Below, piece by piece: positions 17,844 through 31,884 of a stretch of 64,000 nt of DNA. The stretch's first letter is position 1. Every line of letters starts with the position of its first letter. The stretch comes from Escherichia phage vB_EcoM_DE16: sequence record OP595145.1, one strand, 5' to 3'. The translations under genes were made by a program, and so were the position numbers. The notes beneath the pieces are model-generated. The model did not search any database, was not told the origin of the DNA, and saw nothing but the letters and a program-made list of their open reading frames with translations.

Positions 17844-19997
17844 ATGAAACAAGCTATATTTACTGTCACGCGAGACAAGAGAGTAAATGCGAGTTCATTT
17901 AACTACACGACTGTTGATGGAACAGCAGTCGCTGGTAGAGATTATATTGCAAAATCGGGAACACTTGTGTTCCCTGATGATGCTGATTCTGCTACTATTG
18001 TGGTTGAAGTATTTGAACGACCAAAGAACTCAATAGATCTTAACTTCTCCCTCCAAGTTTCAGGGATTAGTCAAAATAATATGATGGTTGAAACAACCAT
18101 CAATTGTATTATAACTACTATCCAAGAAAATACCACTCCAATAACTTGGACTACAAAAGACGTTAAAATGTTCTCTCCTATGTATTGGACAATAGATTCT
18201 CAAGCAACGGAAAGTTGTTCTATTGTATCTCATGGAGACTCTTTTACTGCAAGATTTGTAAACAGAACAACAGCAGGTTTGGCAGGGGTTATCTGGAGCA
18301 CAGTTGACAAATATGACCATAAAGGTGTTGGGTATTTACCCCACACAGATTTAAGTTCAGAGAAACTTTGGTTTAAAATGGAAATTAGTCAAAACATGCC
18401 AGGTTTTAAAGAAGAACCTTTGGTGCCGACTTTGACTGTAACTCTCCTGGATAAAAGTGTTCATTATGTCAGTTTAGGATTCTATGCTTCAGATATTTCA
18501 GAAGATGGTAAAACAGCCACAATCAAGCTAGATTTTGGTAATATCTTTTCTGGCCCTAATAATGATATTCCTTTGGATATGAGTGCCGTAGACAATATTT
18601 TCTTCTCTTTGATTACAGCAAGGTATGAAGAAATAGAGGAGATTGTACCTATTGACAGTCAAGAGGCTTGGTTTACTTTCACTCTTCTTGAACCTACTTC
18701 TGGTTATAGTATGATGAAAGTCAGCAACCTTGTCCAGCCTGAACATGATATTCGCATGTGCACATCTTATGATGATATGTATAACCTGACTCCAGAGAGA
18801 GTTATTTATAATACATATGCACTAGGTTATCGTGGAATGATTAACCATTACAACGGAATGTCTCACTATTATGAGTTCTCATGGAACGGAACATCTTGGG
18901 CTTTAAATAGATCTGTTTTCCTGAATCCGGCTACAGAAGCTTGGCTTAACAGTTTCCATTCTATAGCTAATGAAAATGGCTACACAATAATGAACTCTTT
19001 GAGTTTTGAGTTGATGAGCACAGTTTGTCCTGTAGAATGGGTTCAACATGATTGGAACGATGCTCTTGCAGCAACAGGTTATAAGCCGCCTAGCTATGTG
19101 TTATCTCCAACAATTGATGAAGGTATGGAATATTTGCAAAATGTTATTAACAAAATAGCATCTATTTCTCAAGCTAACAATATTCCAATCGTTATTCAAA
19201 TTGGTGAACCTTGGTGGTGGTATAATACAGCAAGTAAAATGCCTTGTATATATGATTACACTACCAAACTGGCATTCAATACTGAAACAGGCTTATTTGC
19301 ACAAGATGCAGGAACTATAGATAATTATAAAACAGGAACACCATTTGACGAATACTATGCATTTTTGTCTCGTAAACTAGGGTTAAGAGTTACAAAGTTT
19401 GCAACAGACACCAGAGCAACTTATCCAGGAGCTAAAGTAACATTGCTTCCGTTCTTACCATCAATTATCGGCAACGGTTTGATGGAGAAAGTTAACTTTC
19501 CGTCTGATTACTACATTCCTGAAGCTTTTGATTTTTATTGTTCAGAGTGTTACGACTGGCTTCTGGAAGGTAAAATGATGAAAGCATTTGATGCAATTAC
19601 CATACCACATGAAAAATTAGGTTTTGAATATTCTGATATTCACTATCTTGCAGGTTTTGTTCCAGATGCTACTCTTGCACCTTTGTATGGCTTTGATCCT
19701 GAATCAAACTACCGCACGTATCTTTGGAAAATGATTATAGGTAATATAGTGTTGAACGCCAATAAGTTCAATGGACTTACACAATATATATGGGCCTATC
19801 CTCAAATAATGCACGATTCTATCACGGTAGTTAATTCTCAATCCCAAGTTTTCTATATGGGTAACGTGCCTTTGAACGCTTATTTACAGGATATCACTCT
19901 TAAACAGGTAAATGTTGAGATTGCCACCATAAGTGGAATTACATTAGCCACTAAATCTGGAGAAGATTTAGTAACAACACAAAAATTTTATATATAG
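17844..19997 (+). CDS. tail-associated protein with N-terminal Calx-beta domain
   Basis: 717 aa; N-terminus FNYTTVDGTAVAGRDYIAKSGTLVFPDDADSATIVVEV matches the Calx-beta signature. Confidence 0.55.
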   Translation: MKQAIFTVTRDKRVNASSFNYTTVDGTAVAGRDYIAKSGTLVFPDDADSATIVVEVFERPKNSIDLNFSLQVSGISQNNMMVETTINCIITTIQENTTPITWTTKDVKMFSPMYWTIDSQATESCSIVSHGDSFTARFVNRTTAGLAGVIWSTVDKYDHKGVGYLPHTDLSSEKLWFKMEISQNMPGFKEEPLVPTLTVTLLDKSVHYVSLGFYASDISEDGKTATIKLDFGNIFSGPNNDIPLDMSAVDNIFFSLITARYEEIEEIVPIDSQEAWFTFTLLEPTSGYSMMKVSNLVQPEHDIRMCTSYDDMYNLTPERVIYNTYALGYRGMINHYNGMSHYYEFSWNGTSWALNRSVFLNPATEAWLNSFHSIANENGYTIMNSLSFELMSTVCPVEWVQHDWNDALAATGYKPPSYVLSPTIDEGMEYLQNVINKIASISQANNIPIVIQIGEPWWWYNTASKMPCIYDYTTKLAFNTETGLFAQDAGTIDNYKTGTPFDEYYAFLSRKLGLRVTKFATDTRATYPGAKVTLLPFLPSIIGNGLMEKVNFPSDYYIPEAFDFYCSECYDWLLEGKMMKAFDAITIPHEKLGFEYSDIHYLAGFVPDATLAPLYGFDPESNYRTYLWKMIIGNIVLNANKFNGLTQYIWAYPQIMHDSITVVNSQSQVFYMGNVPLNAYLQDITLKQVNVEIATISGITLATKSGEDLVTTQKFYI

Positions 19998-20005
19998 GAG
20001 TAAAA

Positions 20006-21946
20006 ATGTCAACTACAATTACTAATTTACCCGAAACATCAAAAGTTAATGATTCTGATTACCTGGTTTTAGACCAACCTGATAAGACTGTTAAAAGCAC
20101 AGTTTCCAACTTTCTTACTGACACTGGGGTGGTTTTAGCCACCCAGTTGAAAGATACAGATGGAGCAGATTTAATACAATCCTCAAATGGTAATACTGTT
20201 CAGGAAGAGTTGAATAACAATCTTCTTAATGATCGTGAACAGTGGCGTCGTAGTCTTGCTGAGGCTGGCTTAACGCTTGTTGATGGTAGTTTTGAAGACG
20301 GTGCTACAGCAAATAGTAAAACTGATGCCGTTTGGTATAGGACAGGAGGTCAGTGTTATGTGTGGGATGGTGTCGGGGTTAAAAATGTACCTGCTAAATC
20401 AACTCCAACATCAACTGGCGGGGAAGGGGTTGATAAGTGGCTTAATGTTAGTAATGTTACACTTAGGAGTGGGATAGTAGCCTCTATAAATCCAGTAGAT
20501 AATCTAAGCGCACTTAAATCGTCCCTTGCATCAAAGAAGATAACCACATTAACTGAGGCTGTAACCACTACGGATGTAATTATTGTTCCTTCCTACAGTG
20601 AGTTAAGAGGCATTGGTCATAATATAGGAATCATTGCACAACAACCGAAGCCGCAAAAAGTAATATCAAAATCTGGAAATAAAAAATATGATTTTGTTAA
20701 TACAAATAAACCACTTCAGTCGAGAGATGCAATATTAGCTATAGATCCTGCGTGGATTGACGGAGTATACCCCCAACATACAATAATCGATGGGGTATCC
20801 TTACTTGGTGATCCATCCAGTAAAAATGATGTCGGGCTATTTATTTTTCAGGGTGGAAATTTCACCATCAGGAACATGCAGATAGCGAACTGCCTAGACG
20901 GGATTCTTAGCAGTGGCTGCTGGATTAGTCGCTTTGAGAACGTGAGTGCGCTTGGTGGCAGTCTGGCTTTTAATGGTGGCACAAGCCATGTATTAATTGG
21001 GTGCGCTGCCTGGGCTACCGCTGAGAATGACGGAGCATTTTATTTTAATGACGTAACATACAGCAGCATGGTTGGATGCACATCTGACCACTCGGAAGCT
21101 CCAGCTAACTTCTTCAGAGATGGCGTGCAGATGACCATGGTTAACTGCGGAAGCGAGTTCGCTACCTCACCGGGAGGTGGTGTTGGTAGCATGATTGCGT
21201 CAGCAGGTGCGGGCAATAAAATCACGGTACTTGGATATAAAGGGGTTCCAAAGGCTGGGCAGACTGACCCGCTAATTAGTATTTCAGAAAACAGTACGAT
21301 GCACATTATCAATTGGTACAGCAATGAGCCAGACTATCCGAATAGTTTAGACGTCAGTGTAAATGGTGACGGAAGCACTATTATTGTTGAAGATAGTATA
21401 TTCTCTGGAGGCCGAACCCTGCCGGTTGTACAGTTCAGGGGCAACCAACCGAACAGTAAAGTTATTGTTAAGAGCGGCGGTAATGAATATGTATATACCT
21501 CACCTCTGGGGGGTGGTATTGTAAGTTCACCAGAACGTAAGTACAGAGGTACAACGTATACACCGAAGCTACTGGTTAATGGCGCGAATGTTGCCGAGCT
21601 AACATATTCCACTGCTATAGGTAGTGCAGTAAAGAATGGTAATCAACTAACAGTAAACTTTAATTTAGTTATATCAGCCGCTCCTTCATCCCCATCTCAG
21701 GGTACTATTACACTGGATTTACTTTCTACTGAGACGGGGTACGTTCCTGAATATGAATCGTGTGGTGTGCTAGTAGTTTCTAATGGTGTGGGTTTCAGTG
21801 GGGTGGCATGCGTAGTGTCGCCCAATGAGACTATGGTTTATTTAAAAAGCAGTGATGGGGTAAATATGCAACTACAGCATATAAAGGCAGGAACGCAAAT
21901 CAGAGGAGCGGTGACATTTAAAGTAAAAAGATCTGGTTGGTCATGA
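20006..21946 (+). CDS. tailspike / tail fiber with parallel beta-helix-like region (possible depolymerase)
   Basis: 646 aa; RBS AGGAG; central region rich in G/N/S/T/V with repetitive short beta-strand pattern. Confidence 0.45.
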   Translation: MSTTITNLPETSKVNDSDYLVLDQPDKTVKSTVSNFLTDTGVVLATQLKDTDGADLIQSSNGNTVQEELNNNLLNDREQWRRSLAEAGLTLVDGSFEDGATANSKTDAVWYRTGGQCYVWDGVGVKNVPAKSTPTSTGGEGVDKWLNVSNVTLRSGIVASINPVDNLSALKSSLASKKITTLTEAVTTTDVIIVPSYSELRGIGHNIGIIAQQPKPQKVISKSGNKKYDFVNTNKPLQSRDAILAIDPAWIDGVYPQHTIIDGVSLLGDPSSKNDVGLFIFQGGNFTIRNMQIANCLDGILSSGCWISRFENVSALGGSLAFNGGTSHVLIGCAAWATAENDGAFYFNDVTYSSMVGCTSDHSEAPANFFRDGVQMTMVNCGSEFATSPGGGVGSMIASAGAGNKITVLGYKGVPKAGQTDPLISISENSTMHIINWYSNEPDYPNSLDVSVNGDGSTIIVEDSIFSGGRTLPVVQFRGNQPNSKVIVKSGGNEYVYTSPLGGGIVSSPERKYRGTTYTPKLLVNGANVAELTYSTAIGSAVKNGNQLTVNFNLVISAAPSSPSQGTITLDLLSTETGYVPEYESCGVLVVSNGVGFSGVACVVSPNETMVYLKSSDGVNMQLQHIKAGTQIRGAVTFKVKRSGWS

Positions 21947-22112
21947 TTATATGCTAACAGGATGCTGAAGATATGGGAGTGAGTTTTCCCTTTCTTAATC
22001 TGAACTGTATATGGCATCAGTGGCGTGGATGCCCATGGATGGCACCACGCTAACTGGTGTTAATAATCTTGATTTGACTTTCTACTATTAATAGAAAAAC
22101 AAAGAGGTTTAT

Positions 22113-22421
22113 ATGAACGAAATGTTCTCACAAGGTGGTAAAGGTTCAACCGGAATCTTAACCAATAAACAAGCAGTAGCCCGTCACTTTGGAGTTAAAC
22201 AATCTGAGGTTGTTTACTTCTCAGTTGGTGTGGATTTGGGTGGGTATAAGGTTATCTATGATAAGGAGACGCAAAGGGCGTATTCCCTACCTGCTGATAT
22301 TGCCCCAGGTACTACTGCCATTAGTCTTAGTGCTGCTGTACTTGTGCATTCAGCGGGTTCTGTAGACCTTGGGGAATTAGCTGTATCTTGTGATTTAAAA
22401 AGTAATGAGAACGCACCATGA
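22113..22421 (+). CDS. small tail-fiber-associated protein, homologous to an internal module of the 26745 tailspike
   Basis: 102 aa; residues 17-92 align with the segment of the 1017-aa protein encoded around 27420-27660. Confidence 0.45.
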   Translation: MNEMFSQGGKGSTGILTNKQAVARHFGVKQSEVVYFSVGVDLGGYKVIYDKETQRAYSLPADIAPGTTAISLSAAVLVHSAGSVDLGELAVSCDLKSNENAP

Positions 22422-22660
22422 GAAAGTTTTTAATCGGAATGTTTTGTACTTATCCAAACAACAAAATCAGTTCTACTAAAGTGTGGAACGCACTGGGAAT
22501 GCTAACCATGACAGGCATGTTTATCTTTTTAGGAATAGAAAAAGAAATTCCTGAATGGATGGGTTGGGCTTTTGTTTTCATGATAACCCCTTCTCGCCTC
22601 ATGAAAAATCTTATTGATTTACGTTGGGGCAGATCACAATCTACCAAAGAGGATGACTAA
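22418..22660 (+). CDS. small membrane protein (2 predicted TM helices; holin-like topology)
   Basis: 80 aa; hydrophobic segments VWNALGMLTMTGMFIFLGI and WMGWAFVFMITP; charged C-terminus. Confidence 0.3.
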   Translation: MRKFLIGMFCTYPNNKISSTKVWNALGMLTMTGMFIFLGIEKEIPEWMGWAFVFMITPSRLMKNLIDLRWGRSQSTKEDD

Positions 22661-24147
22661 TGGACGAATATGGTTTGACAGATGCGGGATTTGTAATCCC
22701 GACTTTTGACGATGTTCTAAACAATTATATGACAGCAGTAAAAAACACATTTGGTGCAGATGCAGCCACTTCGGAAGATACTGTGATCGGACAACTGTTT
22801 AGAATAATTGCATACACAGATTACACATTGTGGGAAGGTATGCAAGGTGTTTATAATACTCAAACACTGGATGGTGCAGAAGGTATTTATCTTGACGAAA
22901 TCTTTTCTAAGCGCGGTTTCTATCGAGCAGGGGCAGCAGCAAGTACAGGTTATGCCTATGTTAAGAGTAATAACAAAGCAGCTTGGACTTATGAGTTAGG
23001 CACGGATATTTACTTCAACTCTGATAGTGATATGAACTACTATGTTAGCACACCAACTATGTTGAATGCTAAGATTGCAGCTTATCAAATCTCTCGTGCT
23101 AATGCAACTGCTACAGGTGTTCCAAATATTACTTTTTATGCACAAAGTGCGGTGGATGGAGGACTAAACAGTAAAACACTTGCACCTGGTTCTTCTACAT
23201 TTATAACCGATCTTGAAACTTTTATCAAGGCGAATTTAACAGAAGCTGATCGTAGTCTTGTATTTTCTGATTCAGGTAACTTATCAATTGGTTTTACTTC
23301 TTTAACCAGTGATACTCCAGTGGGGCTGGTAACTCCTATTAAATTTTATGCTAGTGTTCCGGTTGGAACCAAGTGGAGTGAGATTCCGGTAGTTGCAGCA
23401 GAGAAAGGATACAATCCTGTTGGTGTGGAGTCTATTACAGGGATATCTTCTACCTTTACAGGTTATCTTGATAGTGGTAACTTCTATTCATTTTCCCCTG
23501 GTCGAGATGTTGAGACAGACGCAGAATTCCGCTCTCGTTTCAATGACAACGTTGACGAAGCTAACGCAGGGACACGAGCAGCTATTGTGAAAGCTCTGCT
23601 ACTTACAGATGGTGTTACTAAGGTGAAGATTTATGATAACCCTACATTACATGATCAAGAACATGCTCCAGCTATGACTTTCCAGACTATAGTTTATGGT
23701 GGCAGTGCAGAAGAAATTGCAAATGTTATCTATAAAACCAAACCAATCAACACTTTGACACACGGAACAACTAACATAACAGTTACAACAGAAGATGGAG
23801 GACAAGAAATTATCCGCTTCTCTCCTGGTACTTCTGCTATGTATTCCGTAAAACTTGTTTATCAAACTGTCAACGGAACAACTTTAAGTGGAACAGAAAA
23901 ACAAAACATCGTAGAAGCTTTACAAAACCTGCAAGCTTACTTTGAGTTAGGTTCTTCAGTAACGAACGATCAAATCAAAGGTGTTATTTATGCAGCACTT
24001 GCTTTTGGACGCTTGACTTCTCTTCGTGTTTATGTTAAACTTAATACTGAGGATGACAGTAAATATACAGAGAATAATATAGTTCCTGCTTATAATGTTG
24101 TCCCTTCTTTTGACCTTGATAACATTTCTTACGAGTATGGAGTGTAA
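22660..24147 (+). CDS. baseplate wedge protein (gpJ / gp6-like)
   Basis: 495 aa; N-terminal region follows the Baseplate_J pattern (TLDGAEGIYLDEIFSKRGFYRAGAAASTGYAYV); precedes gpI-like and fiber genes as in P2. Confidence 0.55.
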   Translation: MDEYGLTDAGFVIPTFDDVLNNYMTAVKNTFGADAATSEDTVIGQLFRIIAYTDYTLWEGMQGVYNTQTLDGAEGIYLDEIFSKRGFYRAGAAASTGYAYVKSNNKAAWTYELGTDIYFNSDSDMNYYVSTPTMLNAKIAAYQISRANATATGVPNITFYAQSAVDGGLNSKTLAPGSSTFITDLETFIKANLTEADRSLVFSDSGNLSIGFTSLTSDTPVGLVTPIKFYASVPVGTKWSEIPVVAAEKGYNPVGVESITGISSTFTGYLDSGNFYSFSPGRDVETDAEFRSRFNDNVDEANAGTRAAIVKALLLTDGVTKVKIYDNPTLHDQEHAPAMTFQTIVYGGSAEEIANVIYKTKPINTLTHGTTNITVTTEDGGQEIIRFSPGTSAMYSVKLVYQTVNGTTLSGTEKQNIVEALQNLQAYFELGSSVTNDQIKGVIYAALAFGRLTSLRVYVKLNTEDDSKYTENNIVPAYNVVPSFDLDNISYEYGV

Positions 24148-24149
24148 AA

Positions 24150-24779
24150 ATGGCAGTGAGTGTTGACCATGTAACAACTTGGGCCAGTATCAATGAAGAT
24201 GTTAAAAACCTTCTGATTGAAGATTTTAAATCTTCTCCTAACATTGTCAAGCTCCTCTACATCGTATCCAGTGAAAAGCAAAAGATAGATCAGGCAATGA
24301 TCTATCTTGCTAAACACCGCTTGATCTCTACAGCTACAGGCAAATACCTAGATATTCTAGGGGAAGAAATGGGGATCGAACGTAATGGCTCTGATGATGA
24401 AGAGTATAGAACAATATTAAAAATCAGGGCTTACCGCGTAGCCTCATCGGGGACTCGTGGTGACATAATTGATATCTTCGCCCGTTTCACAGGAACAGAG
24501 CGTGAAACGCTTAATACTTACGTAGGTTTGAATAAAACCTTTGATGTGTTTTTCTACAACCTGTGTCTTCAATCTGATCAAGCTTTAGAGCAGTTGCTAA
24601 GTGTTTTCCCTATTATTAGTAGCTACCGTCTTGGAGCAAAAGCAGGATCAGCTTTTGGTTTTAGTTCTTATTATGCTACCAAACCGCCTCATGGTATTGG
24701 TGGTTTAGGTTCCCTGTACATGGAATCTACTGGGGATGAAACAGGACGCATGTGTACGCTTCTCAAGCAAATAGATTAA
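24150..24779 (+). CDS. baseplate/tail protein (P2 gpI-like position)
   Basis: 209 aa between J-like and tail fiber genes. Confidence 0.35.
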   Translation: MAVSVDHVTTWASINEDVKNLLIEDFKSSPNIVKLLYIVSSEKQKIDQAMIYLAKHRLISTATGKYLDILGEEMGIERNGSDDEEYRTILKIRAYRVASSGTRGDIIDIFARFTGTERETLNTYVGLNKTFDVFFYNLCLQSDQALEQLLSVFPIISSYRLGAKAGSAFGFSSYYATKPPHGIGGLGSLYMESTGDETGRMCTLLKQID

Positions 24780-26744: not shown

Positions 26745-29700
26745 ATGGCAACATTCCCAACATATCCAGCAACGTCTCTCGAACAGGGCGTAGACCTGGT
26801 TATTTTCTCATCTAACCAACTCCATGATGTTATTAATGGAAGTGCTACAGAGAGTATTGAAACAGAATCAGGGTTGATACCAACCCTGAGAAAAGCCCTT
26901 GTTGACAACTTTTTCTTTAAAAGCCCATTGGATTGGGCGCAAGGCACAAACGAAACAGTTTTTAACCAACTTCGTTATTTCCAGAATGGAGTATTGAGCG
27001 GTTATTACTATGCCCCTAACGCTACATTGGTTAACCCAATCCCTATGCAAGGGACTCCAGTAGGAGATAACAACTGGGTATTGTGGGGACTGAAAACAGA
27101 ACAATTAGCAACAGAAGTCACCCCGTGGGTATACTCTGGTGCAACGGGTTATGAAACAGTAATTAGTCCTCCTTACATCTTTGATAGTGCTATTGTTACG
27201 ATCAATGGTGTTATTCAGGTTCTGGGGGAAGCTTTCCGTATAGAAGATAGTAAGATCATCTTATCTGAACCTTTGGGACACGATCCTGCAACAGGACTAC
27301 CAAACAAGCTTTTTGCTTATATTGGTAAAATCGTAGCTTCAGCAGATACAGATCCTAATCTAGAGAACCGTCTTGTTAGTTTAGAAACAAAAACGGAAGA
27401 ACTAACAGAAAGCATGGATAAAGTCCCTCTGCAAACTATTGCTCGTAAATATGGTTTGTTAGATGATGAGGTGGCTTACGCAACAGCAGGTCAATCGTTA
27501 ACAGGGATTAAAGCTCTGTATGATCCAGTAGCACAGTCTTCCTACACATTACCTCCTAACATCACAGGAACTTTAACATCCTTGTCTGTTTCTGGAGTAA
27601 TGACTTATTCTGGGGGGTCTGTAGATCTTTCTGCACTAGCTGTTGAACGTGGACAGTTTGTTCATTTGCCTACAAGCTTTGGTAATAACGTAACTCTGAC
27701 AGCTAAAAATCAGACGATTGGACGTGGTGCTGGTCGTTATCGTTGGGCTGGAAGTTTACCAAAAAGTATTTTGGCTTCTGATACATTGGAGACAAGCGGT
27801 GGATTAGGTCCAAATGCATGGGTTCTGACCAATACAGAAGGACTGTTAACCCCTCGTGGTGGAACATACAACGATTTATTCGATGTTGTCTACTTGTCAG
27901 AATTTGCTAACAACACAACAACATATACCACACCAGAAGCAGCTTTCCAAGCGGCACTGTTAGCAGCAAAAGCTTCGAAAAGCAAGATTCTCGATGCTTA
28001 CGGTTGCGATATGACTTTCACGACAAGCTCTTTTGATATTCAAGGTATCACTTTGCGTGGGGGTGTGTTCCGTGGTCAACGCGACTATCGTGTGCAAAAT
28101 GCTACAGTAGAAGGCACAACTTTCCGTAACTCTCGTGTTATGTATTGGGGTGGTGCTGTGCGCATGTTCGATTGTTTGTGGGACGGTGCTCCTCGCGCAG
28201 GTCAAGTTGGTAGCTTGGTATTCCAAGGCAACCCAATATCAGGTACTTTTGAAATTGATAATTGTACTTTTAAAAACGGGTTATACGGCATCCTTCAACA
28301 AGGAACAGGGGAACCAGTAACACGTGGTGTCTTCCGTAACCTTACCTTCATGGACATGCAAGGTGATGCAATAGAACTGAACGTCATCAATAAACATTAT
28401 GACGATGGTTGTGTGATTGAGAATATTTACCTGTCTAATATCGATGGAACTAATGCTCCTATTCCTCTGTCCAACTGGGGTATCGGTATTGGTGTAGCTG
28501 GTAAAGGACCATATGGTTACGGAATCCCTGATGATCAATATTGTAAGAATATTACAATTCGTAACGTTTTTGCAAAACGTTGCCGTCAGATTGTCCACGT
28601 AGAAGTTGGTCGTAATATCTCTATCGAAAACATTCATGGCGATCCAGACCAGACTGTATCTGTTGGGACAGGTTTGGCAACTGGCGCAGTTGTAATGTAT
28701 GGAAGTAAAGATTTTACGATTGATGGTGTTTATGGAGAGCCTAAAACAGACGGTAGCACACTTGCAAGTAATATCCGTATGATTTATTTGGAGTGGGGAA
28801 CTAACGCAGTTCTGGACGAAGAGGGTAATCCGGTAGTTCCGGCACAGGGCAGACCTTCAAATCCATGCTTTAACTATTCTGTTCGTAACATTCACACCAA
28901 AACTGGGCGTGTTTTTGCGGGAGTTTCCGCTGGGCCAGGTTATGAAAACAGAGTTAGCTTTGAAAATATTCGTTGCGCTGCATTGCAGTTGTTCGGTATA
29001 GCTTCTTGGCTTTCAATGTCTAACATCACCTGTAATATCTTCGATTGTGTTGGTCAACCTGAATCTGGTCCAGGGACATTTTATGATGGATTCTTCCGTA
29101 GAGAAAAATCTGTTCTTGAAATGGTTAACGTAAACTGTTACCCAGATGGCAAGACGATGGTTACTGGTCGTCCACAGTGGAGCCGTTGCCGTTACTCGGA
29201 TATTCATCGTGTCAACTGTAATGTTGAAGCTAATATGTATACCAATATCGCAGGTGGTATTGGAGCTATTGTAGGGACAACGGGCAAAGTTTATTACTTA
29301 GAGCCTAATCCTAGTCGAAACATTGATGGAATGCATTTCCCAACAGGGAAAGAGTTTGACAAAGGGGATATGATAGTCAAGGCGGATAATACGTTCTTCC
29401 TTGTAACAACAAGTGGGGCATATATTCCAGATATCCCAGCTTTCGGTATTCGAGCTACACAGGCAGGAGATACCTTCCTGACACAGAACTTGACTCCTAA
29501 CGGGACAGCAACAAATGCTTCTTGGTTGTATCATTACCCTCTGTCAGCAGGGACACGTATCCGTATTCCTGGTGCTGGTGTAGGTGGAGCAGATTTGGAC
29601 ACAGTTATTACTCGTGCACCTTATCAAGATAATGATACGTGGACTAACCCAGTTAAAATAGACATTGCAGATCCAATTGTAACGCCTACAAGTGCTGGAG

Positions 29701-29798
29701 TTAGAATTAAAACCATACCTAATGATTCCAGTAATGTTTCTGTAGGTAATACTGCGGTTATTCGCCCAACGCCAGTAGTAGATGTGCCAACAACCTAA
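26745..29798 (+). CDS. large tailspike with beta-helix-like domain (possible polysaccharide depolymerase)
   Basis: 1017 aa; central region shows beta-helix-like repeats (NITIRNVFAKRCRQIVHVEVGRNISIENIHG); contains the module shared with the 22113 ORF. Confidence 0.5.
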   Translation: MATFPTYPATSLEQGVDLVIFSSNQLHDVINGSATESIETESGLIPTLRKALVDNFFFKSPLDWAQGTNETVFNQLRYFQNGVLSGYYYAPNATLVNPIPMQGTPVGDNNWVLWGLKTEQLATEVTPWVYSGATGYETVISPPYIFDSAIVTINGVIQVLGEAFRIEDSKIILSEPLGHDPATGLPNKLFAYIGKIVASADTDPNLENRLVSLETKTEELTESMDKVPLQTIARKYGLLDDEVAYATAGQSLTGIKALYDPVAQSSYTLPPNITGTLTSLSVSGVMTYSGGSVDLSALAVERGQFVHLPTSFGNNVTLTAKNQTIGRGAGRYRWAGSLPKSILASDTLETSGGLGPNAWVLTNTEGLLTPRGGTYNDLFDVVYLSEFANNTTTYTTPEAAFQAALLAAKASKSKILDAYGCDMTFTTSSFDIQGITLRGGVFRGQRDYRVQNATVEGTTFRNSRVMYWGGAVRMFDCLWDGAPRAGQVGSLVFQGNPISGTFEIDNCTFKNGLYGILQQGTGEPVTRGVFRNLTFMDMQGDAIELNVINKHYDDGCVIENIYLSNIDGTNAPIPLSNWGIGIGVAGKGPYGYGIPDDQYCKNITIRNVFAKRCRQIVHVEVGRNISIENIHGDPDQTVSVGTGLATGAVVMYGSKDFTIDGVYGEPKTDGSTLASNIRMIYLEWGTNAVLDEEGNPVVPAQGRPSNPCFNYSVRNIHTKTGRVFAGVSAGPGYENRVSFENIRCAALQLFGIASWLSMSNITCNIFDCVGQPESGPGTFYDGFFRREKSVLEMVNVNCYPDGKTMVTGRPQWSRCRYSDIHRVNCNVEANMYTNIAGGIGAIVGTTGKVYYLEPNPSRNIDGMHFPTGKEFDKGDMIVKADNTFFLVTTSGAYIPDIPAFGIRATQAGDTFLTQNLTPNGTATNASWLYHYPLSAGTRIRIPGAGVGGADLDTVITRAPYQDNDTWTNPVKIDIADPIVTPTSAGVRIKTIPNDSSNVSVGNTAVIRPTPVVDVPTT

Positions 29799-29859: not shown

Positions 29860-31884
29860 ATGAATTTAACAAGACCTAATAGTGCGATAGCCGATCTGGT
29901 AGAAGCTACTTATCGAAAACGTCGCAGCTTTGAGGCAGGTTTTACATTACGTAATTCCCGTGAAGTTTTGCTGTTAGCAGCAGAAGGGAATTATTACCAA
30001 TGGAAAGGAACTTTTCCTAAAGTTGTTCCAGCAAACTCTACGCCAGCCACCACAGGTGGTATTTCTTCCCTTGCATGGCAAAGTGTTGGGACCGCTGATG
30101 ATATAGCAATTATCAATGCCAAGTTTACAGCAATGCAGCAACAGATTGATGATCTGTCGGAAACAATACCTGAAGCTGGTAAATCGGCTTATCAGATCGC
30201 ACTTGATAATGGTTTTGTTGGAACAGAAGCACAATGGCTTGCTTCTTTGAAAGGGGATACTGGTGCTCAACTTAATATTAAAGGATCATTAGCAAGCACT
30301 AGTGAACTACCATCCACAGGTAACGTTGCAGGGGATGGTTATATCGTAGGTGATGTAATCTACGCTTGGGATGGTTCTGTTTGGAAACTTATTTCTTCTC
30401 TTGGGCCAGAAGGTAAATCAGCTTACGAGGTATGGTTGGCAGATGGTAATACAGGATCTGTTTATGATTTTCTTACCTCTATAAAAGGTGATAAAGGTGA
30501 TGTTGGTCCTACAGGGCCACAGGGAGCACCTGGTGTTAACGCCAACGGTTTTGATTATCGTGGGGATTTGCCTTCTACAAGTAACTTACCACAACCTAAC
30601 TCTGAAAACGTAAGCCAAGCTTATTCTATCAATGGTAATCTTTATGTCTCTAATGGGACAGCTTGGGTCAACATGGGTAATATTGTTGGTCCTCAAGGTC
30701 CACAAGGTGAGGCAGGTAAAGACGGTCTTGATGGAACAGATGGAGATGAAGGGAAATCTGCATATCAAAGTTGGCTGGATGCTGGTAATGAAGGGACAGA
30801 AGTAGATTTTATTGCCTCACTTAAAGGTCCAAAAGGAGACAAGGGTGATCAAGGAGAGCGAGGTCCACAAGGTGAACTAGGTCCACAAGGACCAGTGGGT
30901 GCAACAGGATCAGGTTTAGAGATTATCGGGGTTCTGAACAGTGAAGCTGAACTTCCTCCTACTGGAGAAGTAGGTGATGCATATAAAATTAATAATGATT
31001 TGTATGTTTGGATTCAAGATGCTACGGAATGGATGAATGTTGGCAGTCTTGGAGGAACATCAATTACAGCTAAAGGTCATGTTCCGAACAGTGAAGCTCT
31101 CCCTGTTTATAATAACTATGGTGATGCCTATTTAACTGAAGACACTAGTAATCTTTACATCTATACCTACGATCAAGACACCAATTCCGCATCTTTTGTT
31201 GACATGGGAAGTATTAAAGGCGACAAAGGTGAAAAAGGGGATAAAGGAGATAAGGGTGATCCTGGAACAAACGGAACCAACGGTACTGATGGGACCAACG
31301 GTAAGGACGGCGCACAGTGGTTTGTAGCAACAACTAATCCAGTTGCAGGAGACGGTGTTATCAATGATTACGCTTTCAACACTACCACTGGAGCAGTGTT
31401 TAAGAAAACAGATTCTTCTACATGGACACTTATAGGAACTCTTCCTAGTATACCAGAAGCACCTCAAGACGGCTTGACGTATGGTCGTTCTGATGGGAAC
31501 TGGATCGAAATATCAGGATCAGATCCTACAGAAGCTATAACACCAACTAAAGTTACAGCAGGTTTCATGGAACTTGAAACAACTACTGCCAACTCTGGAG
31601 CATCTTGGACTCCTTCTGGAACTTCCAATATGTATGTTGTTACAGTAACTGACGCTCTGACAGTTGGAGCATGGCCTGGTGTCACTGGCTCTACAAAGCC
31701 TAAAGCGTTTTCAGCAATGATTTATTTGATTCAAGATACAACGGGACACACGGTTACACTAGATGCGTCTTATGGAGCACTGAATGATACAGAAATAGCA
31801 ACTACTGCTAACGCAGTAACAATTTTGCAATTAACGTATCCTGGTGTGGGTGATATCGTGGACATGGTTGTTGTAACACGATAA
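29860..31884 (+). CDS. tail fiber protein with collagen-like Gly-X-Y repeats and phage tail-fibre repeats
   Basis: 674 aa; G-X-Y runs (KGDKGDQGERGPQGELGPQGPVGATG; KGDKGEKGDKGDKGDPGTNGTNGTDGTNGKDG) and three GKSAY...WL..GN.G...DF..S.KG repeats. Confidence 0.65.
   Translation: MNLTRPNSAIADLVEATYRKRRSFEAGFTLRNSREVLLLAAEGNYYQWKGTFPKVVPANSTPATTGGISSLAWQSVGTADDIAIINAKFTAMQQQIDDLSETIPEAGKSAYQIALDNGFVGTEAQWLASLKGDTGAQLNIKGSLASTSELPSTGNVAGDGYIVGDVIYAWDGSVWKLISSLGPEGKSAYEVWLADGNTGSVYDFLTSIKGDKGDVGPTGPQGAPGVNANGFDYRGDLPSTSNLPQPNSENVSQAYSINGNLYVSNGTAWVNMGNIVGPQGPQGEAGKDGLDGTDGDEGKSAYQSWLDAGNEGTEVDFIASLKGPKGDKGDQGERGPQGELGPQGPVGATGSGLEIIGVLNSEAELPPTGEVGDAYKINNDLYVWIQDATEWMNVGSLGGTSITAKGHVPNSEALPVYNNYGDAYLTEDTSNLYIYTYDQDTNSASFVDMGSIKGDKGEKGDKGDKGDPGTNGTNGTDGTNGKDGAQWFVATTNPVAGDGVINDYAFNTTTGAVFKKTDSSTWTLIGTLPSIPEAPQDGLTYGRSDGNWIEISGSDPTEAITPTKVTAGFMELETTTANSGASWTPSGTSNMYVVTVTDALTVGAWPGVTGSTKPKAFSAMIYLIQDTTGHTVTLDASYGALNDTEIATTANAVTILQLTYPGVGDIVDMVVVTR
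30470..31320 (+). repeat. coding collagen-like (G-X-Y)n segments inside the tail fiber gene
   Basis: Four separate Gly-X-Y blocks in the translated sequence; boundaries approximate. Confidence 0.6.

Follow-up and report, generated by a model that had tools for sequence, protein, structure and literature searches.

A truncated tailspike gene, probably a recombination remnant, at the receptor-binding locus of Escherichia phage vB_EcoM_DE16

Introduction

Is the 102-codon open reading frame that follows a tailspike gene of Escherichia phage vB_EcoM_DE16 a separate component of the fibre apparatus, or is it what remains of a longer gene? This ORF, here called the stub, is found on the plus strand at 22113..22421 of the 64,000-nt stretch of DNA that we analysed (the window; record OP595145.1). 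A sequence-only reading of the same DNA had taken it for a free-standing copy of a module buried inside the 1017-aa tailspike encoded further downstream, and had suggested either that it serves as an adaptor or docking piece in a branched fibre assembly, or that it is a recombination remnant.

Existing records describe the stub in different ways. GenBank entries label it "tailspike protein", "tail protein" or "hypothetical", and a limited literature search found no published analysis of the stub itself. The paper describing phage BME3 splits "the tail spike" between a 102-aa and a 552-aa CDS (PMC12210895), and thereby mistook the stub for one half of a two-CDS tail spike. A cryo-EM study of phage phi92 (2026), which assigns gp143, gp145, gp146 and gp147, includes no such component (PMC13450770).

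Results

The stub borders an exchangeable tailspike cassette

The window spans the tail and baseplate module of a myophage that resembles phAPEC8 and phi92 (Stephanstirmvirinae). Genes for a non-contractile-sheath-like fibre (17844-19997) and a 646-aa tailspike (20006-21946) precede the stub, and those for an 80-aa membrane protein, a baseplate-J wedge protein, a short fibre and a colanidase (26745-29798) follow it, an order that agrees with gp142-gp150 of phi92 (Table 1). A megablast search with positions 20000-24200 returned about 220 phage records, the best being Phapecoctavirus genomes that matched at 95-98% over the ends of the query only. Within the 646-aa tailspike, the N-terminal ~55-140 residues are kept in relatives and the receptor-binding part is unique; a Tail_spike_N (D2) domain occupies residues 93-149. 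Since relatives lose similarity between ~20170-20420 and 22092, we take position 22092 as the right boundary of an exchangeable cassette.

Table 1. Features of the stub, its neighbours and the colanidase in the window
Feature	Coordinates	Strand	Basis
Exchangeable 646-aa tailspike upstream of the stub	20006..21946	+	Similarity to relatives covers 20000-20134..20456 only and resumes at 22092
Leader and RBS TAGAAAAACAAAGAGGTTTAT, common to Kuttervirus/Gamaleyavirus tsp genes	22088..22112	+	DNA homology; left edge of the conserved block
102-aa ORF (stub), truncated tailspike gene, head subdomain D1 (TD1) only	22113..22421	+	ORF list, phmmer, PHROG, AF2
D1-homologous segment, codons 1-~93 (TSP1 residues 1-94)	22113..22393	+	Nucleotide identity to CBA120 and G7C
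Junction and unrelated tail DLKSNENAP*	22394..22421	+	Alignment; comparison with 10C3_SA_NWU
80-aa membrane-protein gene, phi92 gp144 homologue (phrog_1322)	22418..22660	+	Overlapped by the stub
Colanidase tailspike, 1017 aa	26745..29798	+	
Colanidase gp10-like XD domain, residues ~126-179	27120..27281	+	hhalign, BLASTP
Colanidase internal D1, residues 229-300	27429..27644	+	Partner in the stub alignment (BLASTP, tblastn)
Colanidase D2 (Pfam Tail_spike_N, PF18668), residues 302-361	27648..27827	+	E=2e-9; directly after D1

The intergenic sequence at 21947-22091 is unique to this phage, and a blastn search of the phage collection for a donor found no match for 21700-22091, a segment that includes the 3' end of the 646-aa spike gene. 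Two hairpins are predicted between 21947 and 22112, one terminator-like (21975-21990) and one long (~22014-22062), with an RNA-fold z of -4.5. IMG/VR held no exact match for the intergenic hairpin, and a promoter and terminator scan gave nothing above the shuffled expectation. This hairpin-rich region replaces a terminator motif that relatives carry directly 5' of the stub.

Two of the neighbouring genes have features of their own. The product of 17844-19997 is a 717-aa homologue of phi92 gp142 that combines Calx-beta with the N-terminal and TIM-barrel domains of a "non-contractile tail sheath protein" (Pfam E=1e-78), here in a contractile-tailed phage. The membrane-protein gene occurs with two 5' ends, encoding either 87-88 aa beginning M[AV]KEKNGFKKF (phi92, phAPEC8) or 80-81 aa beginning MRKFLIG (the window, 10C3), and its Shine-Dalgarno sequence reads AAGGAG in 10C3 and the P0022 contig and AATGAG in most stub-bearing genomes.

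The stub encodes the D1 head subdomain of a foreign tailspike

The head of TSP1 from phage CBA120 consists of D1 (residues 12-96) and D2 (residues 97-154), followed by a neck and a beta-helix; on the axis of the trimer, a Zn ion is coordinated by three His25 residues (PMC3966878). A phmmer search of the PDB with the stub returned CBA120 TSP1 (4oj5; E=3e-49, stub residues 1-93 against TSP1 1-94), G7C gp63.1 (4qnl; E=1e-43, 86% amino acid identity), Shigella phage B2 Gp48 (9d84; E=3e-43) and TSP3 (6nw9; E=4e-32). Identity to CBA120 TSP1 was 93% over 93 aa, with residues 1-60 all identical, and D1 of B2 gp48 was ~85% identical to the stub. The stub also matched the N-termini of PHROG tailspike families; a Pfam search with the 102-aa ORF gave no match.

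The predicted structure is of the same kind. In the AF2 model, pLDDT was 80-87 at residues 21-90 and below 50 at residues 1-16 and 96-102, and the model superposed on D1 of TSP1 at 1.4 A over 79 residues. At E<=0.001, Foldseek retrieved with this model only the heads of TSP1, gp63.1, Gp48, TSP3, TSP4 and TSP2 (rmsd 1.2-1.9 A). By its homology to TSP1 residues 12-96, and by an N-terminal helix followed by an antiparallel beta-sandwich in the predicted fold, the stub is a D1 (TD1) domain. The Zn ligand His25 and the entire N-terminal helix are conserved in it, and Arg, Lys or Asn takes the place of His25 in many stand-alone alleles.

The homology extends to the DNA and has sharp edges. It spans 22088 to 22388 against CBA120 orf210 (87.5% nucleotide identity) and 22092 to 22384 against G7C gp63.1 (80.7%), the left edge at 22092 being shared by most Stephanstirmvirinae. 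Tailspike homology thus begins 21-25 nt 5' of the stub's ATG and takes in a common leader, TAGAAAAACAAAGAGG, in which AAAGAGG, a strong Shine-Dalgarno sequence, lies 5 nt ahead of the start. On the right it stops at the codons for "..LAVSR", corresponding to residue ~94 of the 770-aa TSP1, which places the limit of the block at 22384-22393 in the window, approximately the D1/D2 boundary. Past D1 the stub continues for nine unrelated codons (DLKSNENAP), entering the leader of the gene that follows; the TGA stop of the stub overlaps the ATG of this downstream membrane-protein gene (ATGA). In the stub-free phage 10C3_SA_NWU, similarity to the window begins only at 22400 (AAGTAAGGAGAACGCACC-ATG), so the 18 nt directly 5' of that ATG are the native leader of the downstream gene. 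Read from these alignments, the 102-aa ORF is a tailspike gene that breaks off between D1 and D2, where the next gene adjoins it.

Compared with CBA120 TSP1 (ORF210; 4OJ5), the stub is alike in its leader and RBS, in His25 and in its predicted helix and beta-sandwich; it differs in having no D2, neck, beta-helix or D4, in a one-residue deletion (SLS-AAV), in its nine unrelated C-terminal residues, and in lying in a Stephanstirmvirinae genome, whereas TSP1 belongs to the Ackermannviridae. Likewise, G7C gp63.1 and B2 gp48 (4QNL, 9D84) are full-length esterase tailspikes found in virions, whereas the stub, which ends at codon 102, has no receptor-binding part and is not a complete tailspike or depolymerase.

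The colanidase carries an ordinary D1 that is a distant homologue of the stub

The similarity between the stub and the 1017-aa colanidase is real. BLASTP with composition-based statistics aligned residues 20-91 of the ORF with colanidase residues 230-300 (31/72 identical, 43%, one gap) at E=1e-15, so the alignment keeps its significance after composition correction. A tblastn match at nt 27432-27644 falls within the 27420-27660 interval named by the sequence-only reading, and the SLP, GSVDL and LAV motifs it had listed all lie within the alignment. Its description of the stub as a copy of the buried module did not hold up, given 43% identity to the colanidase D1 as compared with 93% to CBA120 TSP1 and 86% to gp63.1. 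Colanidase residues 226-366 match the D1-D2 heads of gp63.1, TSP3, TSP4 and TSP1, and on this evidence the internal module is an ordinary D1 of the tailspike superfamily, set ahead of D2 and the beta-helix. The two D1 domains of the window are thus homologues, the stub being far nearer to foreign tailspikes than to its genomic neighbour.

From N- to C-terminus the colanidase comprises a baseplate anchor, one XD domain, a coiled coil, D1, D2 and a beta-helix. The anchor (residues 11-124) matches 9cuy_g, and Pfam PF26208 is found on its homologues. Residues 126-179 matched XD2/XD3 of G7C gp66 and CBA120 TSP2 in hhalign (probability 97.4%, E=1e-11); the XD assignment rests on this profile-profile comparison, the AF2 model of residues 1-230 having a pLDDT below 50 at 117-230, too poor to confirm an XD fold. 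Within the window, tblastn detected no second XD, which leaves the colanidase XD as the sole candidate docking platform for a D1, and no D1 besides the stub and the colanidase interior. The window therefore has a host spike with an XD domain and lacks a D1-headed guest spike bearing its own receptor-binding domain. The XD-D1-D2-beta-helix architecture is common to CBA120 TSP2 and TSP4, G7C gp66 and the window's colanidase; the stub shares the D1 fold alone.

In phi92, gp150 (804 aa) has the same anchor and XD as the window's colanidase (79% identity over residues 1-199), and the Phapecoctavirus colanidase (1017 aa) corresponds to gp150 with a coiled coil, D1 and D2 inserted after residue 199. 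Because of this insertion, the D1-D2 head is, by sequence comparison, lineage-specific even inside the subfamily. D2 (Tail_spike_N) itself is found in three proteins of the window: the 646-aa spike (20285-20470), the colanidase (27648-27824) and a 674-aa collagen-like fibre (29926-30096), where it starts at about residue 23 with no D1 ahead of it.

The stub combines a constant right end with an exchanged left part

The same truncation junction and tail occur in the Phapecoctavirus phages ZCKP1, Ro121c4YLVW, nieznany, ukendt and anhysbys and in the Justusliebigvirus phages BME3, PD211 and PaulScherrer. Between the window and BME3/PD211, dS was 0.014-0.028 in the stub, as compared with 2.35 in the membrane-protein gene and 1.4-1.5 in the baseplate-J gene, so recombination has recently carried the truncated allele from one genus to another. 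Among 5.8 billion proteins searched, at least 13 clusters share this tail and measure 101-103 aa, all ending in [SY][RC]DLKS[NK]ENA[PL].

Upstream of this constant end, at least five types of 5' part can be distinguished: TSP1-like, TSP3-like (P0022), MNKMFTQPTG (P0011, P0014, P0016), MNQDFTQPT (P0029) and that of ukendt. Several can be traced to full-length tailspike genes of other phages. In anhysbys and PaulScherrer, the first 17 codons and the upstream flank match spikes of Klebsiella phages and Gamaleyavirus at 90-94%; the P0022 contig matches Kuttervirus tsp3 from ~96 nt 5' of the ATG through codon 94 and contains Kuttervirus intergenic sequence; and the stub type of Ro121c4 and ZCKP1 matches Gamaleyavirus U1G from -173 to +153. 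In ZCKP1, a small annotated CDS 5' of the stub represents part of a homologue of G7C gp63 (91.6% nucleotide identity). In Gamaleyavirus gp63 lies downstream of gp63.1, and the ZCKP1 fragment is another foreign scrap at the locus. Taken together, these alignments indicate a stub anchored in the backbone at its right end, with a left part that has been replaced time and again by sequence from full-length tailspike genes that belong to unrelated phages.

Conserved recombination motifs have been described flanking receptor-binding domains (Pas et al. 2023, PMC10408124). In relatives, as in G7C and CBA120, the 20-nt terminator motif (motif three) stands directly 5' of TAGAAAAAC, so that the stub directly follows it; in the window the motif is missing from this position. 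The motif-1/2 region lies in the D2 of the 646-aa spike, and compared with the 20-nt motif the stub contributes ~300 nt more of coding homology. Positions 20237-20370 of the window, within D2 of the 646-aa spike, are 79% identical to the D2 region of G7C gp66, and the counterpart of the stub is the beginning of gp63.1; the order spike D2, receptor-binding part, stub in the window is therefore collinear with gp66 D2, receptor-binding part, gp63.1 D1 in G7C.

By approximate record counts, about 30 genomes of the phage collection have a near-complete stub and 42-54 have at least its last 120 nt, as compared with a backbone present in ~74 (Phapecoctavirus only) to ~130 (both genera) records. Among ~20 Stephanstirmvirinae loci inspected, in a search that was not exhaustive, none had a full-length D1-headed spike at this position. 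The record of vB_EcoM_01 has a run of N over the stub locus. Sequence near-identical to Phapecoctavirus or Kuttervirus also appears in records named Campylobacter phage B15, Pseudomonas phage PsgM04F, an Acinetobacter phage and an Enterococcus phage, and for this reason the host labels of these records look doubtful.

The stub is often absent or decayed, and its resident part appears weakly constrained

The stub is absent from phi92, phAPEC8 and 10C3; in phi92, the endosialidase gene is followed by a terminator and then directly by gp144, and phAPEC8 is arranged likewise. Where the stub is present it is frequently decayed. In ECGD1 and alia, 22141-22297 has been lost in frame, which leaves 49 aa; ALITA, ESCO9, cardinal and EC.P2 retain 3' parts only (5' truncation); the stubs of P0023 and P0031 are frameshifted, and that of P0034 is a fusion. 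The shortest form observed is that of Serratia phage KKP_3264, in which a 22-codon start of another D1 allele (MESQLSQPKQVINVKVNKQGIA..) is joined directly to the shared GATTTAAAAGTAATGAG tail, with a 1-nt deletion. The separate adaptor proteins of split receptor-binding proteins (K1-5/SP6/K1E type) are small, genus-wide and required for linking spike and tail, and a gene absent or decayed in so many relatives is not one of them. The stub has instead the marks of a gene remnant, being truncated relative to full-length homologues, patchy in its presence and subject to independent further decay.

Whole-ORF dN/dS (0.15-0.35) was uninformative as a test of function, divergent alleles having been imported from functional full-length genes; because such imports confound dN/dS, we set it aside and counted variants in the resident 3' part. 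Across 14 copies of the common allele, 10 of the last 40 codons vary, nonsynonymously in 9 cases and synonymously in 1. Under neutrality, 74% of the variants would be expected to be nonsynonymous (P=0.23 for at least 9/10), and the same count has P=1e-5 under an omega of 0.1 and P<=2e-4 under any omega<=0.15; by comparison, omega is 0.01-0.11 in the flanking genes and ~0.14 for D1 in full-length genes. This points to relaxed constraint on the resident 3' part, in a small sample of 10 variant codons, all from the C-terminal strand and tail, perhaps the least constrained part of a functional D1.

Discussion

A probable gene remnant in a recombining tailspike cassette

We consider it probable that the stub is a gene remnant in the recombination-active flank of an exchangeable tailspike cassette, dispensable to the phage and no new fibre component. 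This is the sequence-only reading's second alternative, and the truncation, spread, mosaicism and decay described above all argue for it. The source would have been the first ~93 codons of a tailspike gene of the TSP1/gp63.1 class with its own RBS, which a deletion or illegitimate recombination may have cut at the D1/D2 boundary and fused to the leader of the membrane-protein gene. With its good Shine-Dalgarno sequence and intact frame, the stub is likely to be co-transcribed with the late tail genes and translated even now. The predicted product, a ~10.6-kDa D1 domain with a disordered nine-residue tail, would be unneeded for virion assembly.

Persistence of such a gene would follow from its location in the recombining right-hand flank of the cassette and from repeated overwriting there. 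To co-infecting Kuttervirus and Gamaleyavirus phages the stub would offer ~300 nt of homology (80-88% identity) to their tsp genes, beside the terminator motif proposed as a hotspot. Crossovers are located inside the stub, and in these alignments they show it to be a homology patch. By extension, it may also promote the import of whole receptor-binding parts. A search for imports of entire cassettes found partial signs only (the U1G-like flank, the gp63 fragment of ZCKP1 and the Kuttervirus intergenic sequence of the P0022 contig), and the traceable crossovers ended in the intergenic region. The stub could be either a selected "landing pad" or a passive scar.

Several observations count against a remnant. 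The ORF is intact with its native Shine-Dalgarno sequence in about 30 genomes and at least 13 clusters, always at 101-103 aa, a constancy that could reflect selection to keep the frame open; and the colanidase XD is the kind of surface onto which D1 docks in CBA120. The full-length ancestor that a remnant presupposes was absent from the ~20 loci inspected, and no donor was traced for the upstream receptor-binding part of the window. We also weighed functional explanations.

A free D1 as a possible cap or vestigial adaptor

The first supposes that the stub product is a functional stand-alone D1 that trimerises and docks on the colanidase XD as D1 of TSP1 docks on XD3 of TSP4, where its effect would be to stabilise or block a site of branching formerly occupied by a second tailspike. 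There is good precedent for the docking itself: TSP1 docks via D1 (TD1) on the gp10-like XD3 of TSP4 (PMC8825819), the TSP3 head binds the TSP2:TSP4 complex with XD3 of TSP2 as the proposed docking site (PMC8825819; PMC11414711), the gp63.1 head attaches to the XD domains of gp66 in G7C, and B2 gp48 forms a purified complex with gp49. The XD at colanidase residues 126-179, the conserved His25 and N-terminal helix, and the intact ORF with its good Shine-Dalgarno sequence fit this explanation, and to this extent the earlier suggestion of a docking piece has a basis.

The distribution of the stub does not fit it. The gene is missing from most relatives, phi92 and phAPEC8 among them, although phi92 gp150 has the same anchor and XD; decayed versions are common, and the changes in the resident part are mostly nonsynonymous, as if it were unconstrained. 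Moreover, D1-D2-neck of TSP1 trimerises only with Zn, and no trimer of the TSP3 head could be obtained (PMC8825819), so a D1-only product would be a poor docking unit. In many stand-alone alleles, Arg, Lys or Asn replaces His25. We regard a cap as unlikely. A related case of truncation is the engineered and viable Kuttervirus S117-tsp4-tsp5, in which a truncated tsp4 keeps only its N-terminal assembly domains (PMC11414711), as the stub keeps D1; in that phage, however, the retained anchor and XD hold other spikes, whereas the D1 of the stub is the "guest" end and has no known dependant.

A reading frame possibly kept for translational coupling

It is also conceivable, if improbable, that the reading frame of the stub matters rather than its protein, by feeding ribosomes to the overlapping start of the membrane-protein gene. 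The overlap of stop and ATG is found in all copies, and the membrane-protein gene has a weakened Shine-Dalgarno sequence here as compared with the stub-free 10C3 and the P0022 contig. The in-frame deletion forms (ECGD1, alia, P0027, P0032) retain both the start and the overlapping stop, and the frame is kept while the protein sequence looks unconstrained. However, derivatives with the same tail were found via protein homology, an ascertainment that favours in-frame forms; ESCO9, cardinal and KKP_3264 are viable despite having no upstream in-frame start or a frameshift; and GAG is left as a minimal Shine-Dalgarno sequence.

A possible decoy for co-infecting phages, and the rejected duplication of the colanidase module

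A free D1 might instead occupy XD3 on TSP4/gp66 of a co-infecting phage and so poison the assembly of its branched receptor-binding complex. The docking end of the stub, its first 60 residues, is 100% identical to CBA120 TSP1, several allele types match different foreign tailspike heads, and the recombination history implies co-infection. Such similarity is nevertheless what recombination would be expected to leave behind, the stub has a patchy distribution and is decaying, and D1 alone is unlikely to trimerise, which makes a decoy very improbable. We see just as little prospect that a free D1 works as a decoy or cap, be it on the phage's own colanidase XD or on TSP4/gp66 of co-infecting Kuttervirus or Gamaleyavirus. 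A decoy acting on co-infecting phages, if true, would amount to inter-phage interference through a stolen anchor domain, and would be more novel than action on the phage's own colanidase.

Finally, intragenomic duplication, in which the internal module of the colanidase was excised into a separate gene, would account for the significant similarity between the two but has next to no probability: it is ruled out by the hierarchy of identities, and it also runs against a nucleotide homology that takes in the RBS of foreign genes and against the presence of the stub in Justusliebigvirus, the colanidases of phi92 and of the stub-bearing P0029 contig being 804-aa proteins without D1-D2.

Implications

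On its own, the stub is of little consequence, being a gene fragment already present in GenBank records. Once correctly identified, it will not be mistaken for an additional receptor-binding protein in genome-based prediction of host range. With its fixed right end and left ends replaced many times, it cleanly marks, in natural genomes, the exchange of DNA at the receptor-binding locus among three unrelated groups, Stephanstirmvirinae, Ackermannviridae and Schitoviridae, and it shows crossover sites that are useful for tailspike swaps in phi92/phAPEC8-like therapeutic phages.
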